In this document: piece after piece, positions 1 to 14,271 of the stretch
Layout: every line of letters starts with the position of its first letter
Numbering within the stretch: position 1 is the first letter of the stretch
NCBI GenBank assembly: GCA_963805975.1
Contig: CAWDVR010000004.1
Coordinates: forward strand, 512,001-576,000
From: an uncultured Acidobacteriota bacterium
GTDB taxonomy: Bacteria > Acidobacteriota > Thermoanaerobaculia > Multivoradales > SZUA-115
Direction of reading: 5' to 3'
DNA length: 64,000 nucleotides
Made by a program: the position numbers and the translations under genes
Notes under the pieces: generated by a model
Databases searched by the model: none
The model's input: only the letters and a program-made list of their open reading frames with translations
Told to the model about the DNA's origin: nothing

Positions 1-1
1 G

Positions 2-2236
2 GCGGGCCAGAACCGCATCGACGTCGACTTCGGCTACAAGCCGGCGACGCCGGTCTGCACCGCCGGCTACATGAAGGACACGTTCACGACGGCGAGCTTC
101 TCGAACAACGAAGGCACCCTGGCGTGGAGCGCCGCGTGGATCGAGAACGACGTCGCCGGCGCCGGTCCGGGCAGCGGCAATGTGACGGTGGGAACTCCGG
201 TATCCGGGTACCTGATCCTGCGCGACAGCCCGGACACCGGCACGCAGCCGAGCGCGGCGCGCGAGGCCAATCTCTCCGGCTTCGCCTCGGCGATGCTGTC
301 CTTCGATTTCCACATCCGTGGGGTCGAGACCGACGACGCGGCGGTGGTGGAGGTTTCGAACAATGGAGGCGCTTCCTACACCGTTCTCGAGACCTTCACC
401 GGCCTGACCGGGACGACCATCAGCTCGCGCAGCTACGACATCACGGCATACAAGGCGAGCAATACGCGGATCCGGTTCCGGATCAGCAACCTGTACGGCG
501 GCGATGACGATTTCTTCAAGCTCGACCTGGTCCGTATCGACGCCACCTGCGTGCCGCCGCAGACCGGTTCGGTCGGTGACCGGGTTTGGAAGGACAGTGA
601 CGGCGATGGCATCCAGGACGGCGGCGAGCCGGGGATCAACGGCGTCACCGTCCAGTTGCTGAATTCGGGAGGCACGGTCGTCGCGACGCAGGTGACCAGC
701 GGCAACGGAAACTATCTGTTCAGCGGCCTCAACGCCGGGACCTATTCGGTGCGTGTCGTTTCGAGCACCGTGCCGGCTGGCTACTCGCAGACCTACGACC
801 TCGACGGCACGGGCAGCGCCCACATCGCCAGCTTCTCGCTGGGCGCGGGACAGAATCGCACCGACGTCGACTTCGGCTATCGCCCGGCGCCAGTCTGCAC
901 CGCCGGCTACCTGAAGGACACGTTCACGACGGCGGGCTTCTCGAACAACGAGGGCACGCTGAATTTCAACGGCTCGTGGATCGAATACGACGTGGCGGGA
1001 GCGGGTGCGAGTAGCGGCAACGTGACGGTGGGAACTCCGGTCGCCGGGTACATGATCCTGCGCGACAGCCCGGACACCGGGACGCAGCCGAGTGTGGCGC
1101 GCGAGGCCAATCTCTCCGGCTTCGCCTCGGCGACGTTGTCCTTCGACTTCCACATCCGTGGAGTCGAGGCCGACGACGCGGCGGTGGTGGAAGTTTCGAA
1201 CAACGGGGGAGCTTCCTACACCGTGCTCGAGACCTTCACCGGCTACACCGGCACCACGATCAGCTCGCGGAGCTACGACATCACGGCGTACAAGGCGACC
1301 AATACGCGAATCCGGTTCCGGATCAGCAACCTGTACGGCGGCGATGACGACTTCTTCAAGCTCGATGTGGTGCGCATCGACGCCGCTTGCGTGCCTCAGA
1401 CTGGATCGGTCGGCGACCGGGTGTGGAAGGACAGCGACGGCGACGGCGTCCAGGACAGCGGCGAGACGGGCCTCAACGGGGTTACCGTCGAGCTGCTGAA
1501 CTCGGGCGGCACGGTGATCGCCACCCAAGTGACGAGCGGCAACGGCAACTACCTGTTCAGCGGCCTCGCCGCCGGCACCTACAAGGTACGGGTCAAGTCG
1601 ACCACGGTGCCGTCGGGCTACACCCAGACCTACGACCTGGACGGCACCGGCACGGCGCACCTCGCGACGTTCACGCTGGCGGCGGGACAGAACCGCACCG
1701 ACGTGGACTTCGGCTACAAGCCAGCGCCGGCGTGCACGGCGGGTTACTTCAAGGACAACTTCGGCACCGCCAGCTTCTCGAACAACGACGGCACGCTGAG
1801 CTGGTCGGCGGCGTGGGTCGAGTCCGACAGCGCCGGCGCGGGAGTGAGCAGCGGCAACGTCACGGTGGGGACGCCGTACAGCGGCTATCTGATCCTGGAC
1901 GACAATCCGGACACTGGCACGCAGCCGAGCGCGGCGCGCCAAGCGAACCTCTCCGGCTTCGTCACCGCGACGCTCAAGTTCGACTTCCACACCACCGGCG
2001 GTACCGACGCGGACGACGCCGCGGTCATCGAGGTGTCGAACAATGGCGGCGCGTCCTACACCGTGCTGCAGACCATTACCGGACTGACGGGCACGAACGT
2101 CGGCTCGAAGACCTTCAACATCTCGGCCTACATCTCGAGCAACACGCGGATCCGGTTCCGGATCAGCGCCAACTATGGGGCCGCGGACGAGATGTTCAAG
2201 GTGGACACGGTGCGGATCGACACCACTTGTCCGTGA
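2..2236 (+). CDS. Large extracellular repeat protein (5'-truncated): SdrD B-like domains alternating with Cys-flanked beta-sandwich modules
   Basis: Frame open from position 2 (AGQNRIDVDFGY...). Two GSVGDRVWKDSDGDG(I/V)QDxGExG(I/L)NGVTVxLL...NGNYLFSGLxAGTY...DVDFGY SdrD_B-type units and three ~160-aa beta-rich modules. Confidence 0.85.
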   Translation, partial: AGQNRIDVDFGYKPATPVCTAGYMKDTFTTASFSNNEGTLAWSAAWIENDVAGAGPGSGNVTVGTPVSGYLILRDSPDTGTQPSAAREANLSGFASAMLSFDFHIRGVETDDAAVVEVSNNGGASYTVLETFTGLTGTTISSRSYDITAYKASNTRIRFRISNLYGGDDDFFKLDLVRIDATCVPPQTGSVGDRVWKDSDGDGIQDGGEPGINGVTVQLLNSGGTVVATQVTSGNGNYLFSGLNAGTYSVRVVSSTVPAGYSQTYDLDGTGSAHIASFSLGAGQNRTDVDFGYRPAPVCTAGYLKDTFTTAGFSNNEGTLNFNGSWIEYDVAGAGASSGNVTVGTPVAGYMILRDSPDTGTQPSVAREANLSGFASATLSFDFHIRGVEADDAAVVEVSNNGGASYTVLETFTGYTGTTISSRSYDITAYKATNTRIRFRISNLYGGDDDFFKLDVVRIDAACVPQTGSVGDRVWKDSDGDGVQDSGETGLNGVTVELLNSGGTVIATQVTSGNGNYLFSGLAAGTYKVRVKSTTVPSGYTQTYDLDGTGTAHLATFTLAAGQNRTDVDFGYKPAPACTAGYFKDNFGTASFSNNDGTLSWSAAWVESDSAGAGVSSGNVTVGTPYSGYLILDDNPDTGTQPSAARQANLSGFVTATLKFDFHTTGGTDADDAAVIEVSNNGGASYTVLQTITGLTGTNVGSKTFNISAYISSNTRIRFRISANYGAADEMFKVDTVRIDTTCP
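53..2233 (+). repeat. Intragenic tandem repeat, ~840-bp (280-aa) unit, about 2.6 copies in the window
   Basis: Units begin near 53, 893 and 1730 (tgcac(c/g)gc(c/g)ggNtac, CTAGY). Units 1 and 2 are near-identical at nucleotide level; unit 3 is more diverged. Confidence 0.9.
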
Positions 2237-2248
2237 TTGGGTGTCTGT

Positions 2249-2545
2249 ATGTCCAGCGTGAAGGAGCCGACGATCTTGGGACAGTTGACCATCCCGCCCT
2301 CTGTTCTCTTCCGAGACCTGGGCGGGGAGGCCGTGCTGCTGGAGCTCGAGACCGGCTGCTACTTCGGGCTCGACGAGATCGGGACCCGCATCTGGCGGCT
2401 GATCGAGAAGCACGGTGAGCTGCCGCGCGTGGAGCGCGAGCTGCTGGAGGCCTACGAGGTGTCGCCGGACCATCTGGCCGGCGACCTCTCCGCCTTCGTC
2501 CGCTCGCTGGTCTCGCGCGGCCTGCTGAGGGCCCATGAAGCGTAG
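2249..2545 (+). CDS. PqqD-family RiPP recognition element (lasso B1/E protein)
   Basis: FRDLGGEAVLLELETGCYFGLDEIGTRIWRLI...YEV...DL..FV..L...GLL is the typical PqqD/RRE pattern; it overlaps the B2 gene. Confidence 0.92.
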   Translation: MSSVKEPTILGQLTIPPSVLFRDLGGEAVLLELETGCYFGLDEIGTRIWRLIEKHGELPRVERELLEAYEVSPDHLAGDLSAFVRSLVSRGLLRAHEA

Positions 2546-2963
2546 AGCCCGCGCCTTCTTCTCGCTGGCGAGCGAAGAGCGAGACGTCCTCCTCGAAGCC
2601 TGGTGCCTCCTGCTGCTGGCGGATCTCGCCCTGCGCTGGCTGCCCTGGAGGCGGGTCGAGGGGCTGCTTGCACCCGCGCAGGGCTCCAGTCGTCTGACGC
2701 TGCTCTCGCCGGCACGGCTCGCCACGCTGGTCGAGATCGCGGCCCGGCACCATCTGGTTCCCATGACCTGCCTGCGGCGCGCGCTGGTGCTGCGCCGGCT
2801 GCTCTCGCGGACGGGCTCGAGCGGGGCCCTGAGACTCGGCGTCCGCCGCGAAGCGAACGAGCTCCTGGCCCATGCCTGGGTGGAAGTGGGCGAGCGGCCG
2901 CTGGGGGATGATCCTCAGGTAGCCCTCCGCTTTGCCCCCCTCCTGCCCGCTCACAGCGCGTGA
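2535..2963 (+). CDS. Lasso peptide leader peptidase B2 (transglutaminase-like)
   Basis: TCLRRALVL...LRLGVR...AHAWVE gives the Cys-His-acid catalytic motifs of lasso B2 proteins. Confidence 0.93.
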   Translation: MKRRARAFFSLASEERDVLLEAWCLLLLADLALRWLPWRRVEGLLAPAQGSSRLTLLSPARLATLVEIAARHHLVPMTCLRRALVLRRLLSRTGSSGALRLGVRREANELLAHAWVEVGERPLGDDPQVALRFAPLLPAHSA

Positions 2964-3042
2964 GACGAGTGCTAACAGTCGCCGGAGCGCTGGATCGAGC
3001 CTGCGACGCGCTCAGCTCGTTTTAGGAAGCAGTATTTTGTAA

Positions 3043-3051
3043 TGGTATGAT
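3043..3051 (+). promoter_or_regulatory. Putative extended -10 promoter (TGgTATGAT) for the precursor gene
   Basis: AT-rich patch in the only intergenic gap of the cluster, containing TGnTATGAT; no clear -35. Confidence 0.4.
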
Positions 3052-3152
3052 ACCGGCGGTCTGCGAGCCGGCGGTATCCGTTCAGGCTGGCTACGAGTCG
3101 CTCTGTAGAGACTAGAGAGATGAAGCTCCAGCGGCCCGACCTGAGAGACACC

Positions 3153-3341
3153 ATGAGAGAACACGAGAAAGCGAATCAGGAAGGCGGTGGCACGCGGTCT
3201 TCCGTGCCCGCGGGCGAGCGGCCGCCGCGGCGCGCCTACAGCCCGCCCCAGCTCGTGGTCTATGGCACTCTTTCCGACCTGACCCAGGCCTTGGGCGTCC
3301 TTGGCCGCGACGGGTTGGCCGGCTCTCGTCCCCGTACCTGA
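3153..3341 (+). CDS. Lasso peptide precursor (leader ...AYSPPQLVVYGTLSDLTQ; core ALGVLGRDGLAGSRPRT); alternative start at 3120
   Basis: YxxPxL leader motif, downstream Gly, Thr at -2, small residue at +1 and Asp at core position 8; lies between B2 and cyclase. Confidence 0.92.
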   Translation: MREHEKANQEGGGTRSSVPAGERPPRRAYSPPQLVVYGTLSDLTQALGVLGRDGLAGSRPRT

Positions 3342-3367
3342 ACCCCGTCCTGTCGCCACGAGCCCCG

Positions 3368-5149
3368 TTGCCAGGGTCCCTGCCACGGCAGCCTCCGCTG
3401 GCGGAGGGCGCCACGGCGGGCGGCTCCCACCCGCTGTCGCACGCGTGGCTGATCACCTGGGATCCGCACCATAATCGAGTCCGGGTAGGCTCCTCCGAGC
3501 CGTCGAGCCCCACTGCCGCGGATGCCACCTGCCTGTGGTGCGCAGGCTGGGTGGCGAATCGACCGGCGTTGAGCGCGAGGACCGGCCTCCCCCTCACGGC
3601 GACCGCTCGCGAGCTGGTGCCGGCGCTCTACGCCCGCGAGGGGCCCGAGGCGGCGCGGCAGATCGCCGGTGACCTGGCCTGGGTGCTGTGGGACCCTCGG
3701 CAGCGGCTTCTCTTCGCCTGCCGCGACCGGCTCGGAAGCCATCGCCTCCTCTACCGGGTGGTGGCCGACCAGATCCTGCTCTCTGGAAGCGTCGGGCCAC
3801 TCCTCTCCGACCCTCTCGTCCCTGGTCCGGGCTCGACGATCAATCTCTCGGCGCTCGTGGCGCACGTGCAGGGTGACGCGCTGCCGCCCGGGGAGACTTT
3901 CTTCAGCTCGATCCAGGCCGTCGAGCCGGCGACCTGCGTGACCTTCGGCGGCACGGCCGAGATCCGCCGGCGCTACTTCTGCCTGGCTGCCCAACCGCTG
4001 CTCGAGCTGCACAGCGACGCCGAGTATGCGGAGGCCTTCCGCGACCGGCTGCGGGAAGTGGTCGCGGACCATGCCGAGCCGGGACCCCTGGGCCTCACGC
4101 TGTCGAGCGGGCTCGACTCGACCTCGATCGCCGTCGCGCTCTCCGAGCTCGGCCGGGCCTCCGACGTGACCGCCATCACCTGGGTGACCCCGGGGCTGCC
4201 GGCGGCGGACGAGAGCGCGGGCGCCCGGGCGGTGGTGAGCCGTACCGGCCTCGGGCACCTGGAGATCCCGGCCGATCGACACTGGCCGCTGGCGACCGGC
4301 ATGGAGCTGGAGCCCCCCGCGGAGGGGCCGCCGCTGACGCTGTTCGGCGGGCTCTGGGACGTCACCTACGCGCTGGCTCGCGAGCGGCGGATCTCTTCCC
4401 TGTGGACTGGCCTGGGGGGGGACCATCTCTTCGGCGGGAACGTCTTCTCTTACCCGGATCTCCTGCTCACCGGCCGTTGGCTCGCGCTCGCGAGGCAGCT
4501 CCGGGACCATCTGCCGCGCTCGGAGTTCCGGCCCGCGGAGGTGCTGCGGTCGATGATCGTTTCCCCGATCCTCCGCTCCTACATGCCTCTGCCGCGCTTC
4601 CGCCGGGTCCCGACCGTGCCCTGGCTCACGGCCAAGGGGCTGGCCCTCTACCGCCCGCAGCGGCCCACCGCTCCGCGGCGGCTCCTGCCCGGCCGGCGCC
4701 AGCGGTTCGAGGCCCTCACCGAAGCGGCCCTGCCGCGGCTGGTGGAGGACCAGGCGGCCGCGGCGGCGCGCCATGGCGTGACTCTGCGGCATCCCCTGCT
4801 CGATCCGCGCCTGCTCGAGCTCGCGGCGAGCCTGCCCACCGACCAGAGCTTCCGCGCGGCTCGCCGCAAGGGGATCATGGTGCGCGCCATGCGCGGCCGG
4901 CTGCCCGACGAAATCCTCGACCGGCACGATAAGATTTATCCCACCGCGCTCGCCGAGCGCGGCCTCAAGGAGCGGGAGACGAAGAAGGTCTGGAGCCTGA
5001 TGGACAATCCGCGGCTCGGCGATCTGGGCCTGATCGAACCCGCCTCCTGGCGGCAGGCCTATCGGCTCTACCTCGATGGCCGCGAGGACTCCGACATGTT
5101 CTGGCACACCCTCACCGCGGAAGCCTGGCTGCGGCTGCACGGCGGCTGA
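3368..5149 (+). CDS. Lasso cyclase (asparagine synthetase-like protein C)
   Basis: RDRLG, LSSGLDST PP-loop, GLGGDHLFGG and RHPLLDPRLLE motifs; no N-terminal catalytic Cys of a true AsnB. Start codon uncertain. Confidence 0.9.
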   Translation: MPGSLPRQPPLAEGATAGGSHPLSHAWLITWDPHHNRVRVGSSEPSSPTAADATCLWCAGWVANRPALSARTGLPLTATARELVPALYAREGPEAARQIAGDLAWVLWDPRQRLLFACRDRLGSHRLLYRVVADQILLSGSVGPLLSDPLVPGPGSTINLSALVAHVQGDALPPGETFFSSIQAVEPATCVTFGGTAEIRRRYFCLAAQPLLELHSDAEYAEAFRDRLREVVADHAEPGPLGLTLSSGLDSTSIAVALSELGRASDVTAITWVTPGLPAADESAGARAVVSRTGLGHLEIPADRHWPLATGMELEPPAEGPPLTLFGGLWDVTYALARERRISSLWTGLGGDHLFGGNVFSYPDLLLTGRWLALARQLRDHLPRSEFRPAEVLRSMIVSPILRSYMPLPRFRRVPTVPWLTAKGLALYRPQRPTAPRRLLPGRRQRFEALTEAALPRLVEDQAAAAARHGVTLRHPLLDPRLLELAASLPTDQSFRAARRKGIMVRAMRGRLPDEILDRHDKIYPTALAERGLKERETKKVWSLMDNPRLGDLGLIEPASWRQAYRLYLDGREDSDMFWHTLTAEAWLRLHGG

Positions 5150-5151
5150 GG

Positions 5152-6360
5152 ATGAGCACACTGACGCGCGCCACTCTCCTCGCCAGGAAGCCTGACCTGG
5201 AGCTCCGCCTCGATGCCAGGAACCAGGTCGCGGTGATGGTCGGCGGCGAGGCCGTGCCCTGCGGCCCCTACGGACTGGCCGTTCTGGAGGCGTTCTCGCG
5301 GCCTGCCACTCTCGACGAGGCATTGCGCCGGGTGCAGGCCCGTGGCGCCCAGGACTGGATGGACCTCACCAGCGTCGTCGTGCGTCTCTACGAGGCCGGG
5401 GTGCTCCTCGACGGCGAGCGCGGCAAGCCGGCGCCAGAGAGGCGCTCCGGCTTTGCGAGCTGGTCGGTCCACGTCAAGATGCTCAACGACCGGGTGCGCA
5501 CGGCCAGCTACCTGAGGGCGATCGCGGAAACGGTGCGACCGGGCGACGTGGTGGTCGACATCGGCACGGGCACCGGGGTGCTGGCGGTGGCCGCGGCCCG
5601 TGCCGGGGCGCGGCAGGTGTTTGCCGTCGAGGCTTCCGGCATTGCCACGGTGGCCCGCGAGGTCTTCGCGAGGAGCGGCGTGGGCGATCGGATCACGCTG
5701 GTCGAAAGCTGGTCCACGCAAGCCGAGCTTCCGGAGCCGGCGGACGTGATCGTGAGCGAGATCATTGGCAACGATCCTTTCGGGGAACGGGTCCTGGAGG
5801 TGCTCGCTGATGCCCGGAGGCGGTTGGCCCGGCCCGGCGCGCGCTCGGTTCCCCGCCGCTTGCGGGTCTACGTCCTGCCGGTGACGGTCCCGGAAGAAGA
5901 GCTGGTGCGCCGCATGGGGAGCGAGGCGACCCTCGCCCGCTGGCGCTCCTGGTACGACCTCGACCTCTCCCCGCTCGCTCTGCTGGCAGAGCAGTCGGAA
6001 GAGCCGCTTTTCTTTATCCGCCCGCAGAAGGCGAGCCTCTGGCCGGCGCTCGCCGAGCCGGCGCTGGTGGCGAACGTGGACCTCGAAGCCGAGCCGCCCG
6101 GCGTGCTGGACACGACCGCGGAGGTCACGGTCACGGCTCCCGGCCTCCTGAGCGGCCTGCTGATGTACTTCGAGCTCGATCTCAGCCCCACGGTCACGTT
6201 CTCCACTCATCCCGCCCGGGTCGAGGAGGCCGGCTGCTGGCGGAGCCCCGTGTGGGTCCCTGCCCGGCGGCGGCGCTACGAGCCCGGCGAGCGTCTCTCC
6301 CTCCGCTTCGAGTATGGGCATGCCTCCCGCTGGACGCGGTTGACCCTTCTTCCCGCGTAG
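5152..6360 (+). CDS. SAM-dependent methyltransferase of the protein arginine methyltransferase (PRMT) type with an N-terminal wHTH/RRE-like domain
   Basis: HVKMLNDRVRTASY, VVDIGTGTG, VFAVEAS, double-E loop SEIIGNDPFGE and C-terminal barrel motifs YFELDL...FSTHP...CWRSPV. Confidence 0.82.
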   Translation: MSTLTRATLLARKPDLELRLDARNQVAVMVGGEAVPCGPYGLAVLEAFSRPATLDEALRRVQARGAQDWMDLTSVVVRLYEAGVLLDGERGKPAPERRSGFASWSVHVKMLNDRVRTASYLRAIAETVRPGDVVVDIGTGTGVLAVAAARAGARQVFAVEASGIATVAREVFARSGVGDRITLVESWSTQAELPEPADVIVSEIIGNDPFGERVLEVLADARRRLARPGARSVPRRLRVYVLPVTVPEEELVRRMGSEATLARWRSWYDLDLSPLALLAEQSEEPLFFIRPQKASLWPALAEPALVANVDLEAEPPGVLDTTAEVTVTAPGLLSGLLMYFELDLSPTVTFSTHPARVEEAGCWRSPVWVPARRRRYEPGERLSLRFEYGHASRWTRLTLLPA

Positions 6361-6369
6361 GGCCCCAGC

Positions 6370-7401
6370 TTGCAGCCTCCGAGCGCAACCGCCGGCCTCG
6401 GGCACGAGACCTACCGGGTCTTCGGGCAGACCCTCGCCACGAGCTTTCCGCTCGCGAACGTGCTCGCCTCCGGCCACGGCCCGGTCGATTTGGTCTTCTC
6501 CTGCACGGACCAACCCCCGAGCGAGGTGGACGACGCGGCGTTCGAGCCCTTCTATCAAAGCCCCGAGCGTACGGGCTCGGGAGAAGCGGTCTGCAGTCTG
6601 GCTCGCTTTCCCGGGGCTCGCCTCGTCGAGTGGGAGAGGCTGGGCTTCCCGCAGGTGGCCGACTTCTACTATCTCGGCCCGGCCCGGATTCACGCCCGAA
6701 GGCTCGCCGGCGGGAACGATGCCGAGATCGAGCAGTGCCTGCTCGGGCCGGTCCTCTCCTACTGGCTCGAGCAGAGGGGAATCCTCGCGTTACACGCCTC
6801 AGCGGTGGAGGTGGGGGGCGAGGCGATTGCCTTCCTCGCCGCCGGCGGCACCGGGAAGACGTCGCTGGCCGCGGCCTTCCTCGCAGAGGGGGACGCCCTG
6901 GTCACGGACGACGTGCTGGCCCTCCAGCCCGCTGCACGAGGATTTCTGGCGCTTCCCGGCTACCCGCAGCTCAAGCTCTGGCCGGATCTCGCCCGGCAGC
7001 TCTTCGGTGAGCGTTCGGCCCTGCCGCGCGTGCTTCCGGGGGTCGAGAAGCTGCGCGCCCCGGTGGGGGCCGGCTTCGGGCGGTTCTGTCACCAAACGCT
7101 GCCGCTGACCGCGCTCTACCTGCTCGAACGGCGACCCGAGGACGCGGGCCGCGACGGCCGCGTGGTTCCGGTCGCCTCACGAGACGCCCTGATCGAGCTC
7201 GTCCGGCACTCGTTCTCGCCCCGCCTGGCGGAGGCGACCCAACTCCAGGAGCGCCGCCTCACGCAGTTCGCCCGCCTGCTGCGGGAGGTTCCAGTCCGGC
7301 GTCTGCTGGTGCCCTCGGCTCTCGAGCTCCTGCCGCGGGTGGCCGAGGCGGTGCGGCGGGACCTCAGCCTGCCGCGAGGGAACCCTTCTCCTCGAGAATG
7401 A
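6370..7401 (+). CDS. HPr kinase-like lasso peptide kinase
   Basis: LHASAV, Walker A AAGGTGKTS, LVTDD and PGYPQLKLW motifs; last gene of the lasso cluster. Confidence 0.85.
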   Translation: MQPPSATAGLGHETYRVFGQTLATSFPLANVLASGHGPVDLVFSCTDQPPSEVDDAAFEPFYQSPERTGSGEAVCSLARFPGARLVEWERLGFPQVADFYYLGPARIHARRLAGGNDAEIEQCLLGPVLSYWLEQRGILALHASAVEVGGEAIAFLAAGGTGKTSLAAAFLAEGDALVTDDVLALQPAARGFLALPGYPQLKLWPDLARQLFGERSALPRVLPGVEKLRAPVGAGFGRFCHQTLPLTALYLLERRPEDAGRDGRVVPVASRDALIELVRHSFSPRLAEATQLQERRLTQFARLLREVPVRRLLVPSALELLPRVAEAVRRDLSLPRGNPSPRE

Positions 7402-9703
7402 GACGGCGCCTCTCCCCCCGCTCCTCCGCGCCTGCCGCCTCTCCCTGGCGGTCGAGCTCGTCGAGCGCCGCCAGGGCCTGGTTGTAGTAGTGCCGGGCGG
7501 TGGCGGCGGCGAGCGGCCGCGCCTTCGCCGCCGCCATCCGCGAATACTCGAAAGCGCGGCCCCACATCCGGGCCTGCCCGAAGTGATAGGCCAAGAGCTC
7601 GCAGGCCTCGGCCCGATCCGCCGGCAGCCGGGCCTCGATCGCCTCGGCGATCCGCCGGTGGAGGATCTGGGCCCGTTCGGGGGAGAGGCTGGCGGCGATC
7701 GCCCTGCGGATGGAGGGGTGGGCGAACTCGAAAGTGCCGTGCCGTGCTCCCTGGACCCAGAGCGCCACGTCGCGCTGGCGGCGGCTGTCCGCCCAGTAGC
7801 GCAGGAAATGCCGCACCAGCCAGCGCTGCAGCATCATCTCGACACAGGTCTCGACCACGCCGCCGTCCTCCTGCTCGGCAGCTTCCAGGAGCTCGGCTTC
7901 GAACCGCTGGCCGATCAGGGAGGCCAGGGTGAGCAGGCGCCGGGTGGAGGAGGGCAGCCGGCGGATACGCCGCAGGACCAGATCCTCGTGGCGCGCGGGC
8001 AGGTGCGACCCGAGCTGCCCCCCGAATTGCTTGGGCACGGCCGTCAGGCGCCAGCTCTTGCCCTCCGGCACCAGGGCTCCCTCGTCCCACAGCAGGTTGA
8101 TCCATTCGGTAAGGAGCAGCGGGGCGCCTTCGGTGGCAGCGAACAGGAACCGCGCCAGGGTGGCGCTGCCCTGCTTGCCGACCAGCGAGACGGCGATGCG
8201 GGCCACGCTCTCGGCCGAGAGGCGGTCGAGCGACAGGCGCCTGACGCGGCCTCGCGGCGCGCCGGCCGCGGCGAGGAGCTTCGCCAGGCCGCTCGACGCG
8301 GTCTCTTGCGGCCGGTAGGTCGCCACCACCCAGACCGGCAGGTCGGCGATCTCGGGGAGCAGCGCATGGAGCAGGTTGAAAGTGTCGTCGTCCATCCACT
8401 GCAGGTTGTCGAGAAAGAGGATCAGCGGGCGGGGTTTGCTCGCCGCGCCGGCGCCCGCTGTGACGTGATGGAAGAAGGCGCCGAGGGCGATGGCCAGGCG
8501 GCCGACCGGCAGCGGTGGCGGGTCGCCCGGCCTGGGGGCCAGCTCGGGCCGGAGCTCGCCGAGCTCCGGCACCAGCCGCGCAACGTCCGCCAGCGCGTCG
8601 CCCAACGGCAGACGGGTGATGCGCTCGGCGATCTCGACCTCGCTGGCGAGCGAGTTGCGGAGCGCCTCGATCAGCGGCTGGAAGGCGACCGGCGGCGCGA
8701 GATCGTAGCTGCGGCCGAGAAACACCGTCGCCCGCTCCCGGCTGGTGATCTCGTCGAGGACGGCGCGCACGAGGCGCGACTTGCCGATCCCCGCCTCGCC
8801 CTCCACCAGCGTCAGGCACCCCTGGCCGTCGCTCGCCGCGCGCCAGGTGTGGTGGAGGTGCTGGGACGCTTCCTCTCTTCCCACCAGCGGGATGAGGGGC
8901 CCGCGGGGAGCCGCCTTGTGCTCGCCACCGGCGAGCGCCGGCAGGCTCTCGTCGAGGATCTGCCGGTGGAGCTGGCGGGTCTCCTCCATCGGCTCGACGC
9001 CCAGCTCCCTGCCGAGCAGGCGCTCGAAGCTCTCGTAGTCCTCGAGCGCCCGGCTGCGGCGGCCGGTGTAGGCATAGAGCAGCATGAGCTGGCGGTGCAC
9101 CTCCTCCGACAGCGGGTCGATGCGCAGCAACTGCCGCGCGTACTGGATGCCGAACACGTGGCCGCCGGAACGCAGATGGTGCGCCACCAGGGCACGCAGG
9201 GCGGCGACGGCGGACTCGCGCAGGCGTTCCTGCTCGGCGAGCATCCATTCCTCGAACGGTGGGCTGTCGGAGAGAAAGAAGCCGGCCAGGAAGTCGCCGC
9301 GGTAGAGCTGCGCCGCCCGCGCCAGCTCCCGCGGGTCGGCGACGTCGCCGTCGCCCCAGCCGCGGTCGATCGCCTCCGAGAAGGCATGGAGATCGACCCA
9401 GCAGTGCTCGCCCGGTGCGAAGCGGATGCTGCCCTGCTCGGCGGAGATCAGTGGCGGGGCGCCCTCCGGCACCTGCAGCACCGCGCGCAGGTTGTAGAGG
9501 GCCTGGCGCAGGTTCTGGCGGGCCGCCGTTTCGCCGTGGTGAGGCCAGAACAGGCCCGCCAACTGGTCGCGGCTGAAGGCCCGCCCGGGGTGGGCGGCGA
9601 GGTAGGCGATGAGCGCGCGGGCGCGCTGCGACTCGAAGCGGACCACCCGGCGCGAACCGGAGATCTCGAGTTCCCCCAGCAGGCGGATGTCGAGGCGGGT
9701 CAT
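7364..9703 (-). CDS. SARP-family (OmpR-type HTH + BTAD) transcriptional regulator with AAA ATPase domain
   Basis: IRLLGELEI...SRDQLAGLFWP...ARQNLRQALYNLR; LYRGDFLAG; DPLSEEVHRQLM; Walker A GEAGIGKS; Walker B FLDNLQW. ATG at 9703 preferred. Confidence 0.9.
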   Translation of the reverse strand: MTRLDIRLLGELEISGSRRVVRFESQRARALIAYLAAHPGRAFSRDQLAGLFWPHHGETAARQNLRQALYNLRAVLQVPEGAPPLISAEQGSIRFAPGEHCWVDLHAFSEAIDRGWGDGDVADPRELARAAQLYRGDFLAGFFLSDSPPFEEWMLAEQERLRESAVAALRALVAHHLRSGGHVFGIQYARQLLRIDPLSEEVHRQLMLLYAYTGRRSRALEDYESFERLLGRELGVEPMEETRQLHRQILDESLPALAGGEHKAAPRGPLIPLVGREEASQHLHHTWRAASDGQGCLTLVEGEAGIGKSRLVRAVLDEITSRERATVFLGRSYDLAPPVAFQPLIEALRNSLASEVEIAERITRLPLGDALADVARLVPELGELRPELAPRPGDPPPLPVGRLAIALGAFFHHVTAGAGAASKPRPLILFLDNLQWMDDDTFNLLHALLPEIADLPVWVVATYRPQETASSGLAKLLAAAGAPRGRVRRLSLDRLSAESVARIAVSLVGKQGSATLARFLFAATEGAPLLLTEWINLLWDEGALVPEGKSWRLTAVPKQFGGQLGSHLPARHEDLVLRRIRRLPSSTRRLLTLASLIGQRFEAELLEAAEQEDGGVVETCVEMMLQRWLVRHFLRYWADSRRQRDVALWVQGARHGTFEFAHPSIRRAIAASLSPERAQILHRRIAEAIEARLPADRAEACELLAYHFGQARMWGRAFEYSRMAAAKARPLAAATARHYYNQALAALDELDRQGEAAGAEERGERRRLILEEKGSLAAG

Positions 9704-9791
9704 CGAAAAGTCGTCGGGTCGCGAGAGATTCACAGTGTAGCGCGGAACGCTGTAGCAGCGTCGCTCCGGTCCTTCGGCACTGGCAGGGCCC

Positions 9792-9820
9792 TTGACAGGC
9801 CGCCGCCGTAGTCCTATCCT
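9792..9820 (+). promoter_or_regulatory. Sigma70-type promoter of groESL
   Basis: TTGACA (9792-9797), 17-bp spacer, TATCCT (9815-9820), directly followed by CIRCE. Confidence 0.85.
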
Positions 9821-9821
9821 G

Positions 9822-9848
9822 TTAGCACTCACCGACGCCGAGTGCTAA
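9822..9848 (+). promoter_or_regulatory. CIRCE element (HrcA operator)
   Basis: Perfect TTAGCACTC-N9-GAGTGCTAA upstream of groES. Confidence 0.97.
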
Positions 9849-13291: not shown

Positions 13292-13492
13292 ATGAAGCTC
13301 AAGGTTGTCGTACATGAGGCAGAAGAGGGCGGTTATTGGGCCGAGGTGCCTGCGATTCCTGGCTGCGCCACCCAGGGAGAGACTTTCGAGGAGCTGCTGC
13401 AGAACCTCTACGAGGCGGTCGAGGGTTGTATGGCAGTGGATCTGGAACCATCGGCTACCGATGGCGAGCGGGTCATAGAGATCGCTGTGTGA
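13292..13492 (+). CDS. hicB: HicB-family antitoxin (short, no DNA-binding domain)
   Basis: EEGGYWAEVPAIPGCATQGETFEELLQNLYEAVEG. Confidence 0.9.
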   Translation: MKLKVVVHEAEEGGYWAEVPAIPGCATQGETFEELLQNLYEAVEGCMAVDLEPSATDGERVIEIAV

Positions 13493-13695
13493 AGCAGCTT
13501 TCGGGTCGTGATCTCGCGCGCCTCGTCGAAAGACATGGTTGGGCACTGTTGCGGATCCACGGCAGCCATCACATCTACGGCAAGACCGGCAGCAAGGCTC
13601 GCCTCTCGATCCCGATCCACGGGAGCCACCCGCTCAAGACCGGCCTGCTCCGGTATCTGTTGAAGACAGCCGGAATCAACGAGCAGGATCTGTAA
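13489..13695 (+). CDS. hicA: HicA-family toxin
   Basis: GTG start overlapping the hicB stop; GW...IHGSHHIY...SIPIHG...LKTGLLR. Confidence 0.9.
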   Translation: MKQLSGRDLARLVERHGWALLRIHGSHHIYGKTGSKARLSIPIHGSHPLKTGLLRYLLKTAGINEQDL

Positions 13696-13764: not shown

Positions 13765-14106
13765 TCACGGGTAGTTCGGGCACTGCATCACGCACTCCCG
13801 GTAGCGGTCGTGACAGGCGTCGATGCACTCGTCGTCGAAGGGCGGGCACTGGTGCTGGATACAGCACTTGCGCTCGTTGAAGCAGCTCGCGCAGGGGTTG
13901 GGCGAGCAGAAGTAGGGTGGCGGGAGTGTTTTGGCCTCGGCAGCCGGCGCGAGTAGCGCGAGCAGCACCGGGTCGGCGGCTGGGATCGGCTGGGATTCCG
14001 CCAACGGGACTGGTTCTCCGGAAGAGGGCGCCGCCGGCGCGATGTCGGCAGACGCAGTGAGAACCACGAAAAGGGCGGGGACGAGGGCGAGCAAGGCTTT
14101 TTTCAT
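13765..14106 (-). CDS. Small secreted Cys-rich protein (signal peptide, Pro/Ala pro-region, 10-Cys domain)
   Basis: MKKALLALVPALFVVLTASA signal; C-terminal FCSPNPCASCFNERKCCIQHQCPPFDDECIDACHDRYRECVMQCPNYP. Confidence 0.75.
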   Translation of the reverse strand: MKKALLALVPALFVVLTASADIAPAAPSSGEPVPLAESQPIPAADPVLLALLAPAAEAKTLPPPYFCSPNPCASCFNERKCCIQHQCPPFDDECIDACHDRYRECVMQCPNYP

Positions 14107-14271
14107 CAGGACACTTCCTTTGTCCAAGGGGGTGCCGGCGGAGGGCCTCGGGGAGACCGCCCTCGGCCGCGGTCTGCTCGAGGTGGTGAGCTGCTACGGA
14201 AGGGTCTTGCCCTGCTGTGCGTGAGAAGGGAGGGCTTGCGTCTTTTGCCAGGTCGAGAGTATGATTTTGGC

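Follow-up and report, generated by a model that had tools for sequence, protein, structure and literature searches.

What is the product of a lasso-type gene cluster that carries, alongside its maturation genes, both a PRMT-like methyltransferase and a kinase? Such a cluster lies near the start of the window, by which we mean the whole 64,000-nucleotide stretch of DNA analysed here, from an uncultured Acidobacteriota bacterium. We propose that the cluster unites a PRMT-fold methyltransferase and a kinase with a full lasso-type machinery, and that the product is a 17-residue lasso peptide, N-methylated on arginine and phosphorylated on a tail hydroxyl. Judged from sequence comparisons, the probability of this reading is roughly 50%. 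A lasso peptide with a methylated arginine is a likely, predicted outcome because a PRMT-like enzyme accompanies an intact lasso set.

The genes follow the order B1-B2-A-C-methyltransferase-kinase (Table 1). All six open reading frames are intact, lie on the + strand and encode conserved motifs, and the gaps from B1 to the kinase are -11, 156-189, 26, 2 and 9 nt. ORF, profile and motif checks therefore bear out the tightly packed order described in the initial annotation, which had also noted the lack of an exporter or isopeptidase. We found neither in the cluster; on its flanks are a gene for an SdrD-B repeat protein, one for a SARP regulator, and groES/EL, the nearest ABC genes that were inspected encode parts for metal uptake, and no isopeptidase match to NF033523 exceeded the cut-off genome-wide. 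The SdrD-B gene, whose full ORF was found in L246, ends 12 nt before B1, and the SARP gene is convergent with the kinase gene, overlapping its end by 38 nt. A tblastn search and a leader-motif scan identified this as the single lasso cluster in the 96%-complete genome. A promoter scan gave 0 sites, with 0.2 expected.

Table 1. Genes of the lasso-type cluster and its immediate neighbours, with positions in the window
Feature	Position	Strand	Basis and remarks
SdrD-B repeat protein gene, 3' part	1..2236	+	PF17210; 1734 aa, begins upstream of window
B1, stand-alone RRE (PqqD family)	2249..2545	+	PF05402 E=7e-16, NF033536 E=8e-14
B2 leader peptidase	2535..2963	+	NF033537 64.1 bits vs cut-off 33; TCL + AHAWVE motifs
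Precursor A	3153..3341, alternative start 3120	+	NF033521 23.7 vs cut-off 19
C, AsnB-like macrolactam synthetase	3368..5149	+	PF00733 E=3e-33; start uncertain (TTG)
PRMT-fold SAM-dependent methyltransferase, N-terminal RRE-like domain (weakly supported)	5152..6360	+	PDB PRMT6 E=2e-23
HPr-kinase-like peptide kinase	6370..7401	+	TIGR04352 E=7e-6, below cut-off; start uncertain (TTG)
SARP-type regulator (BTAD + AAA)	7364..9832	-	PF03704, PF13191

The profiles of the precursor, B1 and B2, together with the cyclase motifs, support the earlier reading of the locus as lasso-type. An RRE and a transglutaminase-like B2 protease are both present, with PF05402 (58.8 bits for B1, cut-off 23.4) and NF033537 above their cut-offs. 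B2 carries the C79/H113/D motifs, and the closest relative of B1, among 115, is encoded at the same locus in the family member G004. The precursor has class II lasso features: the leader contains YxxPxL and Thr(-2) and ends YSPPQLVVYGTLSDLTQ, and the 17-residue core, ALGVLGRDGLAGSRPRT, has a small residue 1 (Ala1), Asp8 and no Cys. By lasso rules, we predict the B2 cut site at this leader end and a ring between Ala1 and Asp8. The core contains three arginines (Arg7, Arg14 and Arg16, with an R-P-R tail) and no His, Lys, Asn or Gln. Its sole hydroxyls are Ser13 and the last residue, Thr17; residue 3 is Gly, and the ring is free of Ser and Thr.

The methyltransferase was modelled with AF2. The model built with an alignment has a pLDDT of 93.6 (46 for a single-sequence fold) and combines a Rossmann fold with the PRMT beta-barrel. 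Its best structural match is PRMT3 (Z=30.3, rmsd 2.1 Å over 290 residues); the best 15 rows from VIA-align are all PRMTs (Z 21.8-30.3), the next row falling to Z 14.0, and PRMTs appear in all 37 Foldseek matches listed. The double-Glu loop has a catalytic role in PRMTs. In the window enzyme its residues, E203 and E212, align with those of PRMT6 and PRMT10, and W363 aligns with the Trp of the THW loop. Among 119 homologues, E203 is conserved in 116, E212 in all, the Trp in 114, and the three residues together in 114; the THW His is replaced by Cys in the window enzyme (His in 49/119, Ser in 54/119). The earlier PRMT-like call agrees with these data, PRMT6 being the best PDB match and the top matches by sequence and fold all being PRMTs. 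Hence, as far as sequence and model can tell, this is a true PRMT-fold enzyme, of neither the StspM/LasF type nor the PIMT type of O-methyltransferase. LasF/StspM and the PIMT-like TceM/LihM are also SAM-dependent tailoring enzymes of lasso clusters, but the accessible text of the relevant papers (PMC9266682, PMC13352647, PMC11285071) describes methylation of carboxyl oxygens, giving a C-terminal ester or an aspartimide. AerE/PoyE were considered as closest relatives and rejected: AerE resembles GenN/PrmC and is absent among the matches listed. The likeness to eukaryotic PRMTs (PRMT1/3/6/7) extends over the Rossmann fold, beta-barrel, double-Glu loop and THW-loop Trp; the window enzyme differs in being bacterial, in being only 19-26% identical, in having G-C-W for T-H-W and in its extra N-terminal domain.

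This N-terminal domain (residues 1-88) may be RRE-like, although the assignment is weakly supported. Its predicted order is three strands and three helices, and an hhalign comparison with the B1 profile covered 81/88 columns with E=0.0012 and a score of 21.7, against no more than 15.9 in 20 shuffles; the probability was only 19.8%, and a slice taken as control reached 19.4 across 26 columns. Pfam and NCBIfam gave no PqqD match for the domain.

Do the methyltransferase and the kinase belong together? The initial annotation called them an unusual tailoring pair, but the pairing is not unusual in sequence space. Cyclase and kinase genes lie within 8 kb at 73 of the 199 loci fetched for a PRMT-fold methyltransferase. 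At the same time, the kinase falls in a clade of eight, all from the same order (SH support 88, in FastTree trees with SH-like support only), and the other seven sit in clusters without a methyltransferase. The kinase is thus part of a cassette long established in this order, and the two genes do not form a unit here. The methyltransferase is missing from eight related cassettes of the order and so was likely inserted late; gene content and trees suggest that it would have entered an older kinase-lasso cassette beside groEL. A close relative retains it: a soil run, X1, has the same gene order at 93-96% identity with an identical core, spread over two contigs, neither whole (one takes in the upstream gene and everything up to where C begins, the other the end of C, the methyltransferase, the kinase and the SARP gene). 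The relative P0233, a protein encoded on a contig of equal length (2836), is 79% identical overall and has an identical core.

The methyltransferase might be a passenger that acts on Arg in cellular or secreted proteins other than the lasso precursor, or on nothing, so that the lasso peptide is only phosphorylated, as in its relatives from the order. In addition to the eight cassettes lacking the enzyme, 20 of the 38 loci with the N-domain have no lasso enzyme gene within 8 kb (nine of these contigs are shorter than 6 kb); among the 20 is a clade from actinobacteria whose enzymes keep E/E/W and adjoin GNAT, DUF6325 and SHOCT genes. In G408 the enzyme is 113 kb from the B2 gene. Nonetheless, we consider this explanation unlikely. 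The gene is embedded between C and the kinase, and is kept in the 93-96% identical relative; 14 of the 38 loci with the N-domain, spread over three or more phyla, have lasso genes within 8 kb; and in G009 a different RRE-fused enzyme occupies the same slot. There is also indirect evidence from two top methyltransferase homologues, whose contigs agree in source and length (13919 and 14785 bp) with those of members of this cyclase clade. Among 350 additional genomes from G430's class, no further N-domain cluster turned up at E<=1e-70; plasmids yielded none either, and viral contigs gave only partial matches and no cyclase relative.

If the enzyme acts on the lasso precursor, which residue does it methylate? 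Arg is the most likely target on the sequence evidence. In counts drawn up post hoc, in which kin are not independent, core Arg is present in 13/13 clusters with an E/E/W enzyme, 16/23 without a methyltransferase and 21/60 with a non-EE enzyme, and ring Arg in 9/13 (four E/E/W clusters have none), 3/23 and 11/60, respectively. With lineages collapsed and the window excluded, the figures are 6/6 versus 8/11 for core Arg (p=0.51) and 4/6 versus 3/11 for ring Arg (p=0.16), neither difference being significant. Several N-domain lasso loci (L004, L015, L199 and L268 among them) are absent from the core counts because no precursor was found there. L267, an unrelated E/E/W cluster, has the same G-R7-D8-G ring end as the window core. 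Against the Arg reading, three cassettes that lack the methyltransferase share the G-S-R tail.

Arg chemistry does not follow from the PRMT fold by itself, because TsaG (pfam06325, predicted PRMT homology) bis-methylates a His of thiostreptamide S4, according to the accessible part of the report (10.1101/2020.12.17.423248). The earlier proposal of an Arg-methylated lasso peptide stands in so far as Arg is the most likely target. Like TsaG, the window enzyme has predicted PRMT homology and is encoded in a RiPP cluster. As a stand-in for TsaG, assigned by gene context, we used the gene in the TsaG slot of L013, a thioamitide-type locus with neighbouring APH, HopA1, flavoprotein and YcaO genes and a core ending His-Cys. 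This methyltransferase is 37% identical to that of the window over 390 residues, N-domain included, and has D...M at the E203/E212 positions; the loop motif therefore changes where His is the expected target. The double Glu of the window enzyme is missing from both L013 and L039, and no YcaO, APH, HopA1 or flavoprotein gene lies beside the window cluster.

TsaG nonetheless lends some weight to the alternative that the enzyme modifies the peptide away from the Arg guanidinium, at the N-terminal amine, the C-terminal carboxyl, the added phosphate, or a leader His or Lys. So do the loss of the THW His and the other PRMT-fold lasso enzymes, whose loops read D-x-R or D-Q and which mostly go with Arg-free, Lys/Met-rich cores. 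We regard such a target as quite improbable: in the clusters compared here, departures from Arg-containing cores track loss of the double Glu, which the window enzyme keeps, and the core has neither His nor Lys. Methylation of the Ala1 amine would be incompatible with lasso ring closure. Lys methylation at a K-T tail was rejected, both for the lack of a core Lys and because a C-terminal [KR][TS] is found in 33/60 clusters with a non-EE enzyme and only 3/13 with an E/E/W enzyme.

The kinase has HPrK-like matches only below cut-off, but H142, K163, D180 and D181 are present, as identified by pattern rather than by alignment to PadeK. In the accessible text of PMC9266682, this His-Lys-Asp-Asp motif is typical of the paeninodin/pseudomycoidin kinases PadeK, ThcoK, SyanK and PsmK, which phosphorylate a C-terminal Ser. 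The window kinase shares their motif and lasso cluster context, but the core ends in Thr. It cannot act on a PadeK-type site, since there is no C-terminal Ser; the core also lacks the Ser3 used by BsfK. BsfK, from the bsf cluster of Bradymonas sediminis FA350, is an HPrK-like enzyme that acts on the precursor with the help of B1 (PMC10368454, in the portion available). As described there, the bsf cluster has seven ORFs, including a nucleotidyltransferase and an ABC transporter, with Ile(-2), phospho-Ser3 and no methyltransferase. It resembles our cluster in its split B1/B2, cyclase, HPrK-like kinase and bordering repeat-protein gene (FG-GAP in bsf, SdrD-B here), whereas the window has Thr(-2), no Ser3, a PRMT-fold enzyme and no transporter. 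The seven other cores of the kinase clade, compared by eye, have G-S 4-6 residues past the ring Asp in six cases and G-Y in the seventh. Ser13 is most likely the kinase site, otherwise Thr17.

That no threaded lasso forms, with the divergent AsnB-like enzyme doing other leader-peptide chemistry or the cassette silent and decaying, is a poor prospect in our view. In its favour, the closest of the 128 cyclases gathered at first shares only about 26% identity with C, which also falls far below the lasso-cyclase cut-off (NF033535, 146 vs 525); many AS-like RiPP enzymes are unconnected to lassos (PMC13622209, accessible part), exporter and isopeptidase are absent, the island is missing in G001, and at this site nothing but B1 and B2 is left in G002 and G006. 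Against it, C lacks the amidotransferase N-terminal Cys and retains its ATP motifs; in each of the five other genomes inspected that carry this cyclase clade, a lasso-type precursor with Asp at 8 or 9 lies adjacent; B2 exceeds its cut-off and the precursor has Thr(-2), a small residue 1 and Asp8; and between the window and P0233 the leader has changed but the core has not. C matches PF00733 with 116 bits (cut-off 21), has intact SSGLDS, GLGGD, HPLLD and RHDK motifs, and shares 34-50% identity with some 75 relatives.

We propose the following route to the methylated and phosphorylated lasso. By analogy with lasso biochemistry, B1 would bind the YxxPxL leader, B2 would cut after Gln(-1), and C would close the ring between Ala1 and Asp8 with the tail threaded through it (1676.943 Da). 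The methyltransferase would use its own putative RRE-like domain to dock on the leader, and E203/E212 would position a guanidinium to receive methyl from SAM (+14.016 or +28.031 Da). Our best guess for the site, at slightly less than even odds, is ring Arg7, followed by Arg14 or Arg16 of the tail. The kinase would add phosphate (+79.966 Da) at its preferred hydroxyl. Calculated neutral masses are 1694.954 for the linear core, 1690.959 for the lasso with one CH2 added, 1756.910 with HPO3 and 1770.925 with both.

What would such a product signify? Methylated Arg side chains are a hallmark of signalling in eukaryotes. If our proposal is true, a single-chain, leader-directed bacterial PRMT would be new among lasso modifications, would offer a way to methylate peptide Arg site-specifically, and could show how the PRMT fold switches among Arg, His and other targets. 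In the literature searched (main texts of mostly open-access papers), we found no report of an Arg-methylated lasso peptide and no PRMT-type lasso enzyme. The accessible parts of a 2024 RiPP methyltransferase review, self-described as not exhaustive, give side-chain N-methylation for Asn and Lys only, and those of two lasso reviews (2022, 2026) give O-methylations only. More tentatively, and with the odds against it, the locus could hold a leader-guided bacterial Arg methyltransferase yielding the first Arg-methylated, phosphorylated lasso, as part of a bacterial radiation of the PRMT fold with a loop code and in a swappable slot of an old cassette. Under that code, E...E may specify Arg, D...M may specify His (thioamitides) and D-x-R may set the target in Lys/Met-rich lassos.

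The cluster is a clean member to test, since it has one methyltransferase, no nucleotidyltransferase and a three-Arg core without His or Lys. An SdrD-like gene flanks six of the eight related cassettes, and GC3 is 0.77-0.92 across the six cluster genes versus 0.89-0.96 in three neighbours.

We propose that the PRMT-fold enzyme of the cluster would methylate an arginine side chain of a lasso peptide, and that the neighbouring kinase would phosphorylate its tail; this is the best explanation, with a probability of roughly 0.5. The cluster comprises six intact genes in one orientation. The initially annotated set of B1 (a stand-alone RRE of the PqqD family), B2 (leader peptidase), A (precursor), C (AsnB-like cyclase), methyltransferase and K (HPr-kinase-like peptide kinase) holds, and B2, C and the kinase each carry their catalytic motifs. 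Of that first interpretation, the lasso-type cluster with a PRMT-like enzyme and a kinase stands; the unusual pairing and the PadeK-type site do not. B1 (PF05402), B2 (NF033537) and the leader of the precursor (NF033521) all score above their curated cut-offs, and the HPrK-like matches of the kinase all fall below theirs. The leader terminates in YSPPQLVVYGTLSDLTQ, and lasso rules for the cut site and ring give a predicted core of ALGVLGRDGLAGSRPRT with an Ala1-Asp8 ring. A soil run contains a 93–96% identical relative whose genes follow the same order over two contigs. A protein from a contig of matching length combines an identical core with a drifted leader, which argues that the precursor gene is real and conserved. 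Two named homologues of the cyclase suggest that the host belongs to Acidobacteriota, probably to Thermoanaerobaculia.

In a sequence comparison with the PDB, the methyltransferase, METHYLTRANSFERASE, matches PRMTs best (E=2e-23). An alignment-based model (pLDDT 93.6) superimposes on PRMT3 with Z 30.3 and an rmsd of 2.1 Å over 290 residues; the first 15 rows of the structure comparison are all PRMTs, and the next has Z 14.0. In alignment, the double-Glu loop is matched by E203 and E212, and the THW Trp by W363 (E/E/W hereafter). The three residues co-occur in 114 of 119 homologues; the THW His is replaced by Cys in this enzyme. The family gave 606 matches among 7995 candidates scored, the best 120 being 42–55% identical over nearly the full length. 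Residues 1–88 (the N-domain) are modelled as three strands and three helices. Against a B1 profile of 77 rows they align over 81 columns with E=0.0012 and a score of 21.7, where 20 column shuffles scored at most 15.9 and three control slices 13–19 over 8–26 columns. Since Pfam and NCBIfam searches found no PqqD match in the enzyme, an RRE-like domain is suggestive only.

How common is the pairing? Cyclase and kinase genes lie within 8 kb of a PRMT-fold methyltransferase in 73 of 199 loci, a set fetched without dereplication in which many loci are short and one phylum is over-represented. Among 400 genomes of the host phylum, which include kin and so are not independent, 42 have a methyltransferase match, 94 a B2 match and 33 both. 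By these sequence counts the pairing is widespread, uncharacterised and not rare, contrary to its initial description as unusual.

Alignment and a tree divide the methyltransferases into several types. The window's own (a) combines the N-domain with E/E/W. Type (b), from three actinobacterial loci, shares the N-domain and has a D...M loop. Type (c), the majority among lasso clusters, consists of short, mostly C-terminally extended forms in which the loop reads D-x-R or D-Q and the THW Trp is missing, and type (d) is a small clade with a C-extension, E/E/W and Arg-rich cores. In the D-x-R subfamily (L277-L287, L292, L299, L306 and others), a kinase is present and usually a nucleotidyltransferase. 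Two clusters (L002, L289) have two PRMT-fold genes each. At L004, L015, L109 and L199, lasso-type enzyme sets are joined by genes of sulfotransferase, JmjC or polysaccharide type, and a YxxP precursor was not detectable.

It is unlikely, although the least so of the alternatives, that the methyltransferase is a passenger enzyme. Lasso genes lie within 8 kb at 14 of 38 N-domain loci, a nucleotidyltransferase alone at four, and no lasso enzyme gene at 20, nine of which are contigs under 6 kb (one with a precursor). An actinobacterial clade of N-domain E/E/W enzymes (L005, L009-L011, L089-L092) sits beside GNAT, DUF6325 and SHOCT genes, with no RiPP genes seen nearby; these are candidate stand-alone bacterial PRMTs. 

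In the tree of kinases, the window kinase falls with seven others of its order (SH support 88), whose cassettes, like L394, have kinase, cyclase and precursor and lack the methyltransferase. groEL adjoins six of eight related cassettes, as does an SdrD-like gene. Within the host family, the corresponding site carries B1-B2-C-A-K in G004 and B1 and B2 alone in G002 and G006, and the island is missing from G001. The genes of G009 are ordered as in the window, with another RRE-fused gene in the C-K slot that encodes a candidate new lasso tailoring enzyme. The simplest inference from this gene content and unrooted FastTree trees is that the methyltransferase was inserted late, in a slot for tailoring genes.

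Which residue would be methylated? Each cluster in which a precursor was detected was counted once, after dropping two loci with truncated enzymes, one with both types and one with the enzyme 113 kb away. Core Arg occurs in 13/13 E/E/W clusters, 16/23 without a methyltransferase (Fisher p=0.034) and 21/60 with enzymes lacking the double Glu (non-EE; p=1e-5); ring Arg in 9/13, 3/23 (p=0.001) and 11/60 (p=0.0006); and C-terminal [KR][TS] in 3/13, 1/23 and 33/60. For three of the non-EE rows the class was set by score (two later confirmed as D-x-R, one cut by a contig end), and five "no methyltransferase" loci (G084, G013, G032, G1115, G1165) are from genomes in which a different contig carries a more distant PRMT-fold gene. 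Thus, wherever the double Glu is kept in the clusters counted, a core Arg is available. The Arg contrast is post hoc, five of the 13 E/E/W clusters are a single clade, and once the window is excluded and lineages are collapsed, neither core Arg (6/6 vs 8/11, p=0.51) nor ring Arg (4/6 vs 3/11, p=0.16) differs significantly from no-enzyme clusters. Non-EE cores are Met-rich (10% vs 0.2% without a methyltransferase) and frequently end in K-T.

Our guess for the site is Arg7, because the seven other kinase-clade cores have no ring Arg and the unrelated L267 shares G-R7-D8-G. PRMT7 prefers an RXR motif, according to the portion of PMC8399567 consulted, and the R-P-R tail is similar to it. Action on another target in the peptide is improbable. 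TsaG of thiostreptamide S4, described in the available part of its report as bis-methylating His, with predicted PRMT homology (10.1101/2020.12.17.423248), is linked to the window enzyme through L013, by gene layout a predicted thioamitide-type cluster of the same family. The L013 enzyme, of type (b) and in one clade with those of L039 and L014, is 37% identical to the window's; TsaG itself lies outside the alignment. Unlike the TsaG substrate, the window core has no His, nor Lys or Asn. In the passages seen of PMC9266682, PMC11285071 and PMC13352647, lasso methyltransferases are O-methyltransferases, and the sole Arg methylation is plantazolicin alpha-N-dimethylation. AerE was rejected as a relative, being not PRMT-like in the excerpt of PMC9060474. 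On the combination that was not known at the outset to be described, the main texts searched, an incomplete coverage, yielded no PRMT-type lasso enzyme.

Known lasso kinases target a C-terminal Ser (PMC9266682) or Ser3 (PMC10368454), as stated in the sections consulted. The window core has neither, which separates it from both PadeK, the parallel first drawn, and BsfK. It offers two hydroxyls, on Ser13 and Thr17; of these we would guess the former as the phosphosite, because G-S recurs 4–6 residues past the ring Asp in six of seven sister cores (read by eye).

As improbable as action on another target in the peptide is that no lasso product forms, an explanation kept alive because AS-like enzymes can perform non-lasso chemistry (PMC13622209, in the part available). 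C exceeds the PF00733 cut-off and falls under that of the lasso-cyclase model NF033535 (146 vs 525 bits); all other testable sequence features of a lasso cluster are present, and the locus probably behaves as a class II lasso cluster that bears a kinase and to which a PRMT-like enzyme has been added. As annotated from the start, the cluster contains no exporter or isopeptidase, and no isopeptidase match exceeds cut-off genome-wide.

Locations of the cluster and of features in the window and comparison loci (L) and genomes (G)
Feature	Location	Strand	Details
SdrD-B repeat gene	window 1-2236		directly upstream of the cassette
Lasso-type cluster	window 2249-7401
Short ORF pair	window 13292-13695	+
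120-aa ORF	window 13765-14127	-	hydrophobic N-terminal stretch; eight Cys in final 45 residues; no Pfam match
Two-methyltransferase cluster	L002:4193-7466		one PRMT-fold gene of each type, 2OG-Fe(II) oxygenase between
Predicted thioamitide-type cluster	L013:6120-12561		Nonomuraea aurantiaca contig; APH, HopA1, flavoprotein, methyltransferase, YcaO; core ending His-Cys
B1+B2 pair	L240:4344-5019
B1+B2 pair	L242:14176-15037
B1+B2 pair	L396:8870-9773
Two short Cys/Thr-rich ORFs	L244:15746-16488	-	G003; near-identical leaders; beside ABC transporter fragment
G009 C-K slot protein	L389:8319-9284	-	322 aa; C-terminal PqqD-like domain E=1e-4; weak phosphoribosyltransferase match PF00156 E=0.028

A large SdrD-B repeat gene also directly precedes the lasso cassettes of L239, L388, L390-L392, L395 and L397, replaced at L394 by a C25 peptidase gene; no ABC exporter was found in any such cassette examined in this order. 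No precursor, cyclase or kinase lies near the tabulated B1+B2 pairs. Those of G002 and G006 sit between an SdrD-like gene and groES, with an AsnB-like match on a different contig in both; a split cluster and a remnant are candidate readings. The short ORF pair resembles a HicB/HicA-type antitoxin-toxin pair, and the L244 ORFs resemble lanthipeptide precursors.
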